64,000 nucleotides of DNA from Octopus vulgaris. Taxonomy: Eukaryota. Shown piece after piece: positions 5,600 to 47,127 of this stretch (position 1 is its first letter; every line of letters starts with the position of its first letter). Location: assembly GCA_951406725.2 (NCBI GenBank), contig OX597823.1, positions 87,296,001 to 87,360,000 on the forward strand. The letters are read 5' to 3'. The notes under the pieces were generated by a model that was not told the origin of the DNA, searched no databases, and worked only from the letters and a program-made list of their open reading frames with translations. The position numbers and the translations under genes were made by a program.

Positions 5600-5687
5600 A
5601 TGCAGTACAACCGTTTCAAGCGGATCCATTTAATTGAGCAATGCAATCATTAAATCAATTTAAATGCAGGGCTATCCTCAGCTGCGT
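5600..5687 (-). ncRNA. Hammerhead with extended stem II
   Basis: acgcag-CTGAGGA-t-agc..catttaaattga..tcaattaaatg..gct-t-GAAA-cggttg-TA-ctgcat. Confidence 0.65.
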
Positions 5688-5769
5688 AAATAAATAAATA
5701 AATAGAGTATTTAAGTAAAATTATATAAATGTGTCCGACTGATTAAAAAAAAATTCTATTTATTTATTC

Positions 5770-5857
5770 ATGCAGGTGAAGATATTCCTGCATTTAAATT
5801 GATGTAATGATTGTTTTGTTCAATTAAATGGAGCCGCTTGAAACGGTCGTACTGCAT
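5770..5857 (+). ncRNA. Inverted sister copy of the 5600 hammerhead (C3G without a G8 change, likely dead)
   Basis: atgcag-GTGAAGA-...-GAAA-cggtcg-TA-ctgcat. Confidence 0.5.
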
Positions 5858-5894
5858 TACCTCTGGATATCCAGTTGCTTATTTTGATTATATA

Positions 5895-6224
5895 TATATG
5901 TGTGTGTGTATGTGCATACAACAGGATTCCACACATATATGTATGTATGTATTATGTACGTATGCATATATGTATGTATGTATGTATGTATGTATGTATG
6001 TATGTATGTATGTATGTATGCATGTTTGTATGTATGTATGTGTGTATGTATGTATGTATTTATGTATGTATGTATGTATGTATGTATGTATGTTTGTGTG
6101 TGTGTATGTTTGTATGTATGTATGTATGTATGTATGTATGTATGTATGTATGTGTGTGTGTGTATGTATGTATGTATGTATGTATGTATGTATGTATGTA
6201 TGTATGTATGTATGTGTGTGTGTG
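5895..6224. repeat. (TATG)n tetranucleotide tract
   Basis: Direct read. Confidence 0.95.
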
Positions 6225-6439
6225 CCGACTCTCCTGCGATGCTTCGGTCTAAAGCTGAAACCGTACGGTAAAGAGATATCACAGTCGCCAGTTTCCGGTC
6301 ATTTACGGTCGCTGCCGGCATGTATTTATACATTTATATGTGCATTGATAGCAGCAACAGGGTCATTTAGCGCTTATTTCTAGCAGTGTATGTGTTCTAA
6401 CACTTGCAGCCATATTTAATGACCTCTAATTTTTTTATT

Positions 6440-6842
6440 TTTTTATGGAGCGCGAAGAATTGGATTCTTTACGATGACAATGTACTCAGTCATCGAATTC
6501 TCTTCACTCGTGAGTTTCTCGCCTAAAACAACGAGACATCACTTCCGTAACCATCCAGATTTAGCGCCTGCAGATTTCCATGTCTTCCCTAAGATGAAAA
6601 TGCAGCTGAAAGCTCGCCGTTTTAACACCGTTGTCGAGATCAAGAGCGAATAGCGGCAGGTCCTCGAGTCCCTTACGGAAAACTACTTCCAGGCCGCATT
6701 CCGAAAGTGGTTGAAATGCTGGGACTGGTATATTGCTGCGAAAAGTAACTAATTCGGAGGAGATGATATTAAAACTTAGGTAAATGAGTTATTTTCTTTT
6801 AGACATAACTAGTCCGAGAACTTTTTGATAGTGCTTTGTATA
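6440..6842 (+). mobile_element. Mariner transposase 3' relic with terminal repeat
   Basis: PDLAPADFHVFPKMKMQLK..RFNTVVEIK is the YSPDLAP motif region. 204 nt are duplicated at 5256-5459. Confidence 0.8.
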
Positions 6843-6993
6843 TCTTCATTCAGTTTTCGTCTGCCAAATCCACTCACGAGGTTTTGGTTATCACTGAGTA
6901 CTTGCCAAAGGACCATGCATTATGATTGAACCTGGAATCATGTTGTTGGGAACCAAACGTCTAAACACACAGCCAGGGTCTGCGCCTAAAGGG

Positions 6994-7098
6994 ATGCTTA
7001 AAGCACCTAGTTTTCCCGGGCAGTCGTTCATCTAAGCATTAACTAGACACGACGTTGCTTCACTTCAGTAATCAGAGGGGAATCGGTGCTTTTCAATG
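6994..7098 (-). pseudogene. Degenerate 5S rRNA pseudogene
   Basis: Plus-strand agcacctagttttcccgggcagtc...gacgttgcttcacttc...atcggtgc aligns by eye with the reverse complement of invertebrate 5S rRNA. Confidence 0.7.
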
Positions 7099-43059: not shown

Positions 43060-43519
43060 TGTTAATTTATTAAACGTGCAAAAATGCTAATAATGCAACT
43101 ACTAATAATTAGTTCTAATTAACAAACCTAATATTCTCCATTGTTGTGCATAACTAACTTATGGTCGTATATTCCATGGACTGAACTGTATTGATATTAT
43201 AATTCAGCTTTTTTTATCTCTTTTCATTCTGAACGCGTTATGACCTACTTTATTTATTTTCAAGTAGATAGATTATGATAAAAACAAAAAGTTTAATCAC
43301 TTAATCAATACATTCGATGACGAAGACGATTATTATTATTATTATTATTATTATTATTATTATTATTATTATTATTATGATGATGATGATGATGATGATG
43401 ATGATGATGATGATGATGATGATGATGACAAATTTATATATGGAACCTGTTGATGACGTACGCTGCTGGCATATGTGTGCACTTGTACATTTATATATGT
43501 ATGTGTGAATATATATAAC

Positions 43520-43995
43520 TTTGATAGCTTTGATATATATAACTTTGATAGCTTTCGGCCAGTATAAGCCAAAGCCATGTCTAACTCAACAGCAACACCT
43601 GGTGAAGACTTTTAGTCATATATGGGGTACCATAGCCAACGCTATCAAACAGTTATTATTGTTGGAGACATATCCGAGGGTAGGAGGTTGGTCCGGGATT
43701 TTTTGAAGAAATTCGTCCAGTGAACATATGAATTTCCATTTTGACGTATTTTGGTATGGTATTAAAGAGAGCTGGACCGGTTGAGGTGAAGTAATTGTGA
43801 CGTAATGTTGCTATGTGTAGCGAGTTCGATTTTTGTAGTTGGCGGATAGCACAGTGGCCAGGTCTTGGCTGGATTTTAAAATTGATGCAAAAATCATTTG
43901 TGCAATGTTGATGGAATATTTTCCACATAACACAAGTGATGTAGCGCTCCCGATAGCGTTGGAGATAGTAGAGGTTGAAAATTTTTTAGTCGACC
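43520..43995 (-). mobile_element. Degenerate LINE 3' fragment, same family as 62033-63647
   Basis: MWKIFHQHC...RHNYFTSTGPALFN matches the C-terminus of the 62082 ORF. Confidence 0.85.
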
Positions 43996-45194
43996 CTAAT
44001 AATCAGTACCTCTCGTGCCGTTTATCTTTCTTATCATTGACCTCAGGAGTCCTTCTACTTTCATAATGAGTTGCTTCGTATGGGGGGACCACACTGGGTG
44101 TCACTTATAACGAATTTTACCCAGACACTATTTGTGACACCCGCAGTTTATTAATCTTTGTTTTCCCACCATCAGCCGCTTGTCGAAGTATTCTTCGGGA
44201 GTATTCGGCAAAATAAGATGTCACGTTATAGATGCAACATTAACAGATGAGCGTCGAGCGCATCGATTCATACGTACACGCGCATACACACACACACACA
44301 CACACAAACACATACACACATACACACACACACAGACGCACACATATACATATGTAAATACGTTGTAATGAAGAAGTCAAACCAAACTGATATTTTGAAG
44401 TCATTTAATACATACGTTTCATGTCTGTGTAATATATAATAGGAAATACATACATTACGTAAACCTTCTTCAGTGTTAGTACAAATTAACCGGTCCAAAC
44501 GCCATACACTAACACCAATTTGAAATATTTAGTTATATTTGGCTCGAATTCTTCAATATATATATTATGTATATGTATATATATATATATATATATATAT
44601 ATATATATATATATATATATATATATATATATTTAACATTTGAAATCCACGTGGTTCATAACAATATGCACGCGCTATTATTTATAGTCTTATAGCTTTC
44701 TACTTGGAGTTTTACCGTCAAAAATATTTTATTCATGCCCTGGAAGTTTCTATGATATCAAATATATATATATATACAGGCATTGATTGTCTATATGGCG
44801 CGTGCGGGGATATAAGTCGCAGCTATATCTAAAGGTCGAGCGTCCATCATCGATGAAACCAAGGAAAGATGAAATTAAGTGATCAGGTTGTCTCGGTGCT
44901 GGAGTTGATGGGGATCTATCTCCCCGCGAGCGATATAAAGAAGCGTGCATTCTGCACCAAACGCCGATATGAGAGTTCCTCTCATGGTATGTACAACAGT
45001 AAAATTTGTTATAATCCACGTTTAAGTAGGAATAAATATTGCTACACACACACACACATACACACACACACACACTCACACATACACACCCTCATATATA
45101 TATATTATATAAACATATACGTACATAACTACTCACACGCGCGTACACACTCACACACACATACGTATATATATATATATATATATATATAGCA

Positions 45195-45948
45195 TGTTGA
45201 AAAGAAAGTTCTGTTGCATTTTTGATCTGATCACTTTGAAGGTATCCCTCTGTACCTTACTGTTTTCCGTTTAGTCAGGGTTTTATTCTACTCCTCATTG
45301 AAGCATAGACTCACAACCGTACATTTCCTCGTAAAATCCTCACAAGAGATGAAAAGTTAGTCATCTGTGACAATTTCCAACGGAAACGAATATGGGTTAT
45401 CAGCCAAGGAAAGTGGAGAATCCATTCCCAATCCAGGAATGCATTAGAAATATTCATGCTTTGTTTTTGGTGAAATATGAAGCATATCTTGAAGAGTTCC
45501 ACCAAAGCGAAACTGTGAATGTGGAGAAATATTGCACAAAACTTTACAGAAAAACCGTTGATCATCAAGAGATATAGCTCTAACATGATACTGAAACACC
45601 ACATATCACTGGAGTCGGGAAAAGATTTTGGTTCTAAATACAGAGGTTTCGTTTCATCGTCCGTTCTTTCCTAGCGTTCATCCACATGAGGTCCTTATTT
45701 TCAGATCACTGAAAGATTATTTCCCGGGCAAACAGTTGGTTAATTATGAAGAAGTTAAATATTGGATGTTTTTATGCTTCGAAATCGTATGGGTTTTACG
45801 TCTGAGGGATTAGTAGTTTGGCAAATTGATGGGATTATGTTACCAATAAATAGAGAACATATTATCGTGATTATCTTAATTATGACCAAAGAAGTATTTG
45901 TTTCTTTCTCATATAAGAATGCGACGGAAGTTTCTCCCCAACCTAACA
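45195..45948 (+). mobile_element. Decayed mariner element
   Basis: ILTRDEK (TGDEKW-like), ETVNVEKYC, FRSLKDY.PGKQL. 3' TIR ..tctccccaacctaa. Confidence 0.65.
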
Positions 45949-46140
45949 TACACACACATGCACACACACAGATGCATGCATACATACATACATACATACA
46001 TACATACATACATACATACATACATACATACATACATATATATATATATATATATTACAATTTCATTAATCAATTAAAGGAGTCGATTGAAACGGCCCTA
46101 ATGAGTTGACACCTCTACATCTTTGTTACTCAAATATATA

Positions 46141-46965
46141 TATCAATAAGTATCCGGACTGTTGTTAGAGTAACGAAGCTAAAGCATGCAGAGTAAAGCT
46201 GCTTGGCACAGATTGGCCTTGAACTTTGTTGTGCATGCGCACTAAGTTTTATCGTTATAACTCTCTTCTGCTGCTTACAGCAGTGCTTGGAGTGAAGGCG
46301 TGTAGCGTGTAATCATTTCATTGACCTTGAAAAAGTTGTTGCAGAGTTGCAGAAGTGTATGGAAAAGAGTGTATGAGGCGCACACAAGTGTACGAGTGGT
46401 TCAGCTGTTTCCAAGATAGCCGAAAAAATGCCGATATTGACGAACTTAGAAAAATATCGCAGATATGAGTGCAACTGTGAAGGGAAGTTGACCACCTGTG
46501 AGTTATCAGAGGATGTGCAGATTAGTTACGGTTCCGTTCAGTCCATTTCCACTGAAGATTTAAGTATGAAACATGTGTCTGCCAAGTTTGTGCCAAAACT
46601 GCTTTCAGTTGACCGAAAGGACACTCGGGTTTCAGCTGCATAACATCTCCTTCCTTGTGTCGTGAACGATGGAACTTTTTGAAAGCTTTGCGTAGGTCCC
46701 TAAGGCAGATATCACCAAACCCTTGGCAAAATTTGATGCAGATTCTCTGCTCAACTTTCTCTGTCATGGTCAATGCGACGATCACACGCTACGCACCTAC
46801 CTTCCAAGCACTGCTGTAAACAGCAGAAGTGAACTAGAACGTTAAAACGTAATGCGCATGTACAGCAGAGTCCAAGATCAATCTGTACTTAGCGGCTTCA
46901 CTCTGCATGCTTTAGCTTCGTTACTATAGCAACAGTCCGGATACTTATTGATCATACGACGTGTA
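46141..46965. mobile_element. Mariner-derived palindromic non-autonomous element with long inverted ends
   Basis: About 175-nt inverted repeats (atcaataagtatccggactgttg.. / ..caacagtccggatacttattgat). EQRICIKFC on the minus strand and SAKFVPKLL on the plus strand. Confidence 0.8.
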
Positions 46966-47090
46966 TATATTATTTGATATAAACGATTACAAAAGATTCT
47001 GTTGTGGCTGCGGAGAGTCATTTTCTTTTTGTGCCTTATAATGTAACACACTCACCGGTAAAATTTCCACTGTTTCTTATTTCTATTTCC

Positions 47091-47127
47091 CTAAAATTTT
47101 CGTTGCGTCTTGCAACCTTTTCCATAG
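47091..47127 (-). ncRNA. Hammerhead-like motif, U3-A8 variant (U4 mutated)
   Basis: cta-TGGAAAA-g-gttgc(aagac)gcaac-GAAA-AT-TT-tag. Confidence 0.5.

Follow-up and report, generated by a model that had tools for sequence, protein, structure and literature searches.

Hammerhead ribozyme motifs were analysed in a stretch of 64,000 nucleotides of the Octopus vulgaris genome (GenBank assembly GCA_951406725.2, contig OX597823.1, positions 87,296,001 to 87,360,000; hereafter the window, to which all coordinates refer unless another locus or contig is named). Type-I hammerhead sequences very probably ride here in the 3' terminal repeats of Penelope-like elements and in short elements devoid of open reading frames (ORFs) that are likely copied by the same enzymes. 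Fourteen of the 15 motifs that an earlier note, made from the sequence alone, had listed for this window, which was chosen for its richness in hammerheads, are real hammerhead sequences of a known kind, apparently left by Penelope-type families. These 14 sites were assigned to nine genome-wide repeat families (F1, F2, F3, F4, F5/F6, F7, F8, F9 and F11; Table 1).

The layout sought was that of a type-I hammerhead: stem I 5' - N3UGAN7N8A9 - stem II - GAAA - stem III - UH - stem I 3'. With a strict descriptor that permits N3-N8 covariation, 7 motifs were found in the window, compared with a mean of 0.13 (maximum 1) in 60 block-wise dinucleotide shuffles; six of the seven are sites of the earlier note, while the seventh, at 17614 (+), is without relatives. 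A relaxed scan with a score of at least 16 gave 9 motifs versus 0.6 (maximum 3) in 40 shuffles and recovered 8 of the 15 sites, so that the motif density is far above that of shuffled sequence, as the note's own proposed control demanded. By hand and script all 15 sites could be read as type-I hammerheads, 0–3 nt off the positions originally given, and of the sites that the relaxed scan did not recover, six are copies, damaged or offset, from families in which other members retain the motif. The conserved core boxes, stems I–III and the UH site are intact in 6 window copies and conserved at the family level for 14 of the 15 sites, the majority of the window copies being decayed. When N3:N8 was left unconstrained in 760 kb, 21 of 24 high-scoring motifs had a Watson-Crick pair at this position (13 CG, 5 UA, 2 GC and 1 AU), and shuffles gave 1.6 matches.

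The probability that AT-rich repetitive DNA produced these motifs by chance is negligible. The relaxed scan does yield such matches (3.6 per shuffle at a score of at least 10), and the sites at 37361, 17614, 44473 and 54640 have no relatives, but the excess in the strict scan, the conservation within families and the N3-N8 covariation refute a chance origin for 14 of the 15 sites. The remaining one, described in the note as a decayed motif at 37361, has a hammerhead-like layout, and no relative that could confirm it was present among the loci collected for comparison. The additional scan matches at 17610-17660 (+), 44473 (-) and 54640 (+), over which the collected loci likewise held no relatives, are probably due to chance or very old. 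In an Rfam scan of the window, no hammerhead was present among the best 150 of 316 matches, which were dominated by microsatellites. The claim that the stems of the motifs differ completely was overstated, as relatives within the window exist for 9 of the 14 sites (three in F4 and two each in F1, F5/F6 and F7).

Table 1. Hammerhead-bearing elements and host genes of the window.
Feature	Position	Strand	Characteristics or basis
F1 hammerhead	5602..5685	-	CUGAGGA core, near-palindromic CGGUUG stem III, GUA; long-ended arm (5486-5702) of a head-to-head inverted pair
F1 hammerhead, decayed	5772..5855	+	G3 opposite G8; short-ended inverted arm 5729-5893
Gene A, host major facilitator superfamily (MFS) transporter	10652..42994	-	12 exon matches; first exon 42938-42994 as in database isoform
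F2 hammerhead, old family	11305..11350	-	Sense in last gene A intron; mismatches in stems I and II
F3 ORF-less element	15092..15418	+	Intact hammerhead 15204-15248 (CCCGGG, GUC)
F4 copy, 5'-truncated	16537..16666	+	Intact hammerhead 16575-16620 (CG stem III, GUU); strict scan, relatives
F5, young ~200-bp fixed-end element in (TA)n	18747..18948	-	Intact G3-C8 hammerhead 18887-18937 (AUAU, UUU)
F4 copy	19231..19377	-	Hammerhead 19285-19330, stem II broken; sense in gene A intron; relatives
F6, older subfamily of F5	23949..24050	+	Intact G3-C8 hammerhead 23956-24000 (AU, UUU)
F4 parent, 5'-truncated Penelope/Poseidon-type element, long 3' end	24737..25400	-	Broken GIY-YIG end (open frame 25054-25266), partly deleted tRNA-like segment ~24963-25025, (AAT)n; hammerhead 24823-24869, stem III decayed to non-palindromic CA; relatives and frame
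F7, very young copy in (TA)n	30613..31055	+	98.9% identical to 560-nt ORF-less tandem unit; intact hammerhead 30713-30764 (CGUACG, GUU)
F7b, diverged subfamily (~72-77% to F7), more-than-unit copy	31067..31823	-	Sense in gene A intron; hammerhead 31265-31324, stem II displaced
F8 short repeat	32672..32796	+	Hammerhead 32713-32743, U4C, 2-bp stem I; family retains CUGACGA
F9, old Neptune-type Penelope 3' remnant	33926..34540	+	GIY-YIG C-terminal frame 33926-34150; hammerhead 34388-34474, long stem II, CGGCCG stem III; relatives and frame
Possible decayed motif, unconfirmed	37358..37396	+	UCUAGA palindrome, poor stem I
F11 element, U3-A8 family	46991..47605	-	Sense, just 3' of gene B stop; hammerhead 47091-47127, U4G
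Gene B, tandem MFS paralogue, extending ~9 kb past the window	47785..64000	-	Paralogue match, exon layout same as gene A

Two families are tied to reverse transcriptase (RT) or GIY-YIG frames, with the hammerhead in the repeat 3' of a Penelope ORF: the F4 parent and F9. Both contribute one of the two motifs, 24823 (-) and 34388 (+), that had been noticed just 3' of GIY-YIG remnants, and both placements proved real. Relatives of the F4 parent reach the RT (YVDD; Pfam RVT_1, E 1e-6), with a VYxIPCxCG GIY-YIG recognised by motif only, whereas the relatives of F9 (68–87% identity) carry a CxC..CP linker and GIY-YIG (E 7e-4) and do not reach the core RT. The clade labels (Neptune-type, Penelope/Poseidon-type) follow motifs known from the literature, without a tree. 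A similar same-strand hammerhead lies within 1.2 kb downstream at 11 of 50 Neptune-type endonuclease loci. Ribozyme cores are missing from two additional 3' fragments in the window, one of F4 at 2424-2499 (-) and one of F9 at 38209-38320 (+).

The motifs outside the F4 parent and F9 reside in short ORF-less elements. Most window families are non-autonomous, and one carries a tRNA-like head, which the earlier note had missed. Most of these elements have the hallmarks of Penelope insertions, i.e. two alternative 3' ends, an inverted 5'-truncated partner and AT-rich targets, with target-site duplications in some cases. A pattern of long and short ends is visible in F1, F7 and F11, and F7 also has inverted partners. 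It should be mentioned that family copies were taken from lists of best matches and are therefore skewed towards near-complete, similar copies. The assignment of the motifs to minimal type-I hammerheads of Penelope type with a palindromic stem III, as had been proposed in the note, is supported.

The layout of non-LTR (non-long terminal repeat) retrozymes, in which an ORF-less unit with a hammerhead occurs in tandem or more-than-unit copies, was found in F7, F3 and F2. F7 forms head-to-tail arrays of 560-nt units that are ~99% identical between copies (6 units in locus L238), and also occurs within (TA)n. The F3 unit of ~360 nt (length from coordinates) is circularly permuted, with more-than-unit copies at other loci. 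A GIY-YIG remnant suspected upstream of the F3 motif at 15204 was rejected, because none of 40 scored relatives extends there. Members of F2, of which three copies are present in locus L243, have a canonical-looking motif with a 6-bp stem I, a 4-bp stem II, an 8-nt palindromic stem III and GUC.

The F4 family combines a Penelope parent with numerous short copies. Its layout comprises the ORF stop, a tRNA-like segment (head) with A and B boxes, an (AAT)n tract and the ribozyme, and the head is an integral part of the parent, since 19 of 20 copies selected by protein alone continue through it. Most copies that bear a head nonetheless start at it. Exact 18-mer counts across F4 rise from 695 in the ORF and 1,090 just 5' of the head to 6,097 in the head and 11,252 in the core; the step at the head is 5.6-fold over ~55 nt versus 1.6-fold over the preceding 180 nt. 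Among F4 insertions that reach the head (counted at loci fetched for reasons other than F4, excluding the edge locus L019), 8 of 10 start at -17 to +4, and the other two, one of which is the window copy, extend into the ORF. Of the 13 inverted F4 pairs that could be scored, 12 combine a long-ended with a short-ended arm. The 3' part of the short copies is a Penelope repeat with Penelope ends, and neither a LINE-derived (long interspersed nuclear element) 3' tail nor a LINE partner was found in them. The F4 consensus also has an open frame of 52 codons that passes through the ribozyme.

From these sequence features the short F4 copies are probably RNA polymerase III (Pol III) elements resembling short interspersed nuclear elements (SINEs) that are moved by Penelope enzymes. 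The other explanation of the 5' boundary, which we consider rather doubtful, is that a 12-nt palindrome stalls or switches the RT and that the short copies are plain truncations of Penelope mRNA. This palindrome overlaps the first bases of the head and inversions join there; moreover, the head is negative in Rfam and ARAGORN. The lack of a TTTT terminator in F4 is not significant (65% of shuffles likewise have none). Truncation by stalling is opposed by A and B boxes at tRNA spacing, by the alignment of the head with a genomic tRNA-Val gene (42.5 versus a maximum of 38.5 in 200 shuffles, for this single tRNA gene) and by the abruptness of the count step. Another tRNA-related sequence is located at 21179-21249 (-) in a gene A intron, where an Rfam tRNA match of 42.6 bits, above the gathering score and with no ARAGORN call, likely marks a tRNA pseudogene or SINE head.

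F5 and F6 are the young and old layers of one family, present in at least 4,632 copies (exact matches); when 16 copies were aligned, 14 had kept a G3-C8 pair. Length does not vary among the 20 F5 copies that are complete at both ends; (TA)n borders 12 of these on each side, and target duplications of 8–14 bp accompany 3 of the remaining 8. The covariation of stem II is modest (95% paired, double changes in 2 of 5 pairs, and 13 of 500 shuffles as high). Only U3-A8 is named as a natural N3-N8 covariation in the available text of PMC3088659, and a natural G3-C8 hammerhead family was not found in the literature searched, although Lunse et al. 2017, Repbase, and figures and supplements, which lie outside this coverage, may hold it. 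Locus L112 (4834-5732) contains four tandem F5 copies spaced by (TA)n, next to a complete copy of F4 and an inverted pair resembling F3. A 5.2-kb spacing of F5 on contig C28 was considered as a Penelope tandem and rejected, as it reflects a host gene duplication: L110-L111 (G000:C28:25050001-25070000) is a 5.2-kb tandem duplication of a gene with glycosyltransferase-like frames, with three F5 copies per unit.

How such elements would multiply can be proposed from the lizard Anolis, in which, according to the available text of PMC11167929, the Penelope tail reflects two internal start sites of the RT, the RNA template is uncleaved and insertion is into AT-rich DNA; the two kinds of end seen in octopus correspond to this 'tail' (PMC11167929, PMC8557442). 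By analogy, the octopus families are inferred to follow the same insertion route. The Penelope protein would nick AT-rich DNA, and uncleaved RNA would be reverse-transcribed from either of two internal start points downstream of the ribozyme, which would generate the long or the short end. Where a transcript is tandem or multimeric, pairing of two ribozymes via their palindromic stem III, or assistance from the Penelope protein, would allow the RNA to be cut into units, which in F2, F3 and F7 could circularise in a retrozyme-like manner. In F4, the A/B-box segment likely drives ~270-nt Pol III transcripts that would be inserted by the Penelope protein as a SINE-like element. For isolated dimer helices, energies of -14.9 (CCCGGG), -9.8 (CGUACG), +2.2 (AU) and -0.2 kcal/mol (AUAU) were calculated; cleavage as dimers would therefore be plausible for the first two and doubtful, if unaided, for the last two.

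Several results weigh against this reading. These are: (i) the very weak dimer helices of the AU and AUAU families, (ii) U at position 17 in F4, F5/F6, F7, F8 and F11, (iii) the minimum-energy fold, which differs from the active fold for most single motifs, (iv) the lack of a parent ORF for F1, F2, F3, F5/F6, F7, F8 and F11 downstream of 50 Neptune-type loci, where only one F4 and one opposite-strand F1 copy matched, together with a Poseidon protein search that matched the F4 family only, (v) the lack of a full-length F4 parent with an upstream pseudo-long terminal repeat (pLTR) at any of 20 ORF loci, (vi) the failure of the Rfam tRNA model and ARAGORN to recognise the F4 head and (vii) the lack of direct tail-to-head junctions of F5 (0 matches within 12 nt), because of which a circular route is unsupported for this family.

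Some of these points are shared by an unlikely alternative that nevertheless deserves attention, namely that the motif is retained because it serves the Penelope ribonucleoprotein in folding or in protein binding, self-cleavage being weak or not required in several families, in particular those with G3-C8, or with U3-A8 and an AU-only stem III. According to the available text on the anole element, cleavage by its ribozyme requires the protein, insertion still occurs with core mutants and RNA-seq shows no ends at the cut site (PMC11167929); minimal motifs are described as poorly active in vitro (PMC4209133). The weak dimer helices and U17 of the octopus families, as well as the presence of the uncut motif in genomic copies, agree with such a role. 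Dispensable cleavage is less easily reconciled with the retention of N3-N8 pairing via three different pair types, since this pair matters for catalysis (the anole C3G/G8C double change gives partial rescue; PMC11167929), or with a palindromic stem III that recurs with a different sequence in each family.

The host context of the motifs was also analysed. Gene A is 98% identical over the aligned part to an Octopus sinensis MFS transporter, and its introns contain 12 motifs, 5 sense and 7 antisense (p=0.77; 5 versus 6 without 37361). The five sense copies had been correctly counted in the earlier note; no strand bias, which it had suggested testing, is present, and only the F5 copy at 18887 is intact, those at 11305, 19285, 24823 and 31265 bearing the damage listed in Table 1. 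The window copies are likely passive, mostly decayed insertions. Domestication of the sense copies to cut and regulate gene A pre-mRNA is very improbable: apart from the existence of these five copies and the intact one among them, it can draw on the conserved intronic hammerheads of amniotes (available text of PMC6155905), but there is no strand bias, four of the five are damaged, and the intact copy is a young repeat, 96–98% identical to its relatives, that has no same-family sense partner in gene A. A solitary intronic copy, having no partner in cis, would seldom cleave, in agreement with the lack of strand bias. Downstream of gene B, the F11 element starts ~180 nt after the stop codon on the sense strand, and its core-damaged (U4G) hammerhead may therefore lie in the 3' untranslated region of this gene. 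Other repeats of the window include a 498-aa LINE open frame with an RT domain (RVT_1, E 3e-31) at 62064-63560 (+) and shorter LINE-related fragments at 56592-57591 (-), 43656-43985 (-) and ~19810-20087 (-). The sequences at 1714-2237, 3358-3732 and 39238-39653 are tandem copies of an abundant octopus SINE-like repeat.

The very large and diverse load of ribozyme motifs that had been predicted for this genome was borne out in a random sample of 59 stretches of 10 kb across 30 contigs (590 kb), which contained 19 intact-core motifs at a score of at least 16 versus 1.7 in shuffles. Extrapolation gives ~29 intact motifs/Mb or ~8x10^4 per 2.8-Gb genome (Poisson range 4-12x10^4). The window, with 7 motifs in 64 kb (9 in 170 kb of its flanks), is ~3 times richer than the genome average, and alone it would overstate the load. 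Exact whole-genome counts of 18-20-mers were 11,252 for F4, 5,203 for F11 and 4,632 for F5/F6, together 21,087, with 0 for reversed controls. Other hammerhead families, absent from the window and several of them present as inverted pairs, were seen at loci L016, L025, L030, L037, L045, L055, L066, L119, L120 and L123, therefore the number of families in the genome is well above nine. Lunse et al. 2017 reportedly dealt with ~150,000 hammerhead variants. A large load is to be expected, because the known Penelope content is high: Penelope-like elements of O. vulgaris constitute 6.83% of the genome in 190 families (PMC13282606), and the available text and supplement of that repeat paper do not mention hammerheads or ribozymes. 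Elsewhere, 126,247 hammerheads have been counted in axolotl, more than 6,000 in 16 families in Acropora and ~5,000 in mussel (PMC7229834, available text). The octopus density exceeds published counts such as that for Acropora and ~9,000 for X. tropicalis, though the descriptors differ.

Hammerheads in Penelope elements and retrozymes are already well known. In the available text of Cervera & de la Pena 2014 (PMC4209133), the minimal metazoan Penelope hammerheads share with those of octopus the type-I layout, the extra base after A9 and a short palindromic stem III, and also the many families per genome, mostly solo motifs, opposite-strand pairs 100-700 bp apart, a U3-A8 variant and a site 3' of the GIY-YIG ORF; the G3-C8 family has no counterpart in the literature covered. 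Non-LTR retrozymes (Cervera & de la Pena 2020, PMC7229834; bioRxiv 10.64898/2026.07.22.740005), which have been proposed to use Penelope enzymes, resemble F7, F3 and probably F2 in their ORF-less units with one type-I hammerhead and head-to-tail or more-than-unit copies. F7 differs from the retrozymes reported there in its unit length (560 nt versus 150-450 bp), its ~99% identity, and a Penelope tail and inverted partner that are directly visible. As is proposed for F4, the Schistosoma SINE-like elements Sm-alpha and Sj-alpha (PMC6765202, available text) have a Pol III-type promoter followed by a hammerhead, whereas in F4 the tRNA-like head lies within the 3' region of an autonomous Penelope, the ribozyme is of the minimal Penelope type and the copies are dispersed with Penelope-type ends instead of tandem. 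The Anolis Poseidon element PAc (PMC11167929) shares with the octopus elements two internal RT starts downstream of the ribozyme, insertion into AT-rich DNA and an open frame that crosses the ribozyme; in its available description there is no tRNA-like segment, and G3-C8 appears only as the engineered partial rescue. No paper on octopus hammerheads or Penelope-moved tRNA SINEs was found in the literature searched, and the sources outside its coverage named above for G3-C8 may hold variants of these too.

Compared with these known systems, three variants stand out, all of them modest and open to experimental test: the family with G3-C8 hammerheads, the Penelope offspring with a tRNA-like head and the young arrays of retrozyme type. 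Tentatively, an octopus Penelope may have captured a tRNA-derived Pol III promoter in its terminal repeat and given rise to thousands of SINEs that depend on Penelope enzymes instead of a LINE for their movement, alongside a separate natural G3-C8 family of more than 4,600 copies; with the very young 560-nt retrozyme arrays, this could place octopus among the densest ribozyme-bearing genomes, with ~10^5 motifs. Host introns tolerate sense-strand hammerheads, as the copies in gene A show. An autonomous Penelope element, its tRNA-headed short offspring, ORF-less tandem units with Penelope insertion marks and three core pairs (C-G, U-A and G-C) make this one genome a natural test set for two questions: do retrozymes, and some of the SINEs, employ Penelope enzymes, and do minimal ribozymes have to cleave at all?

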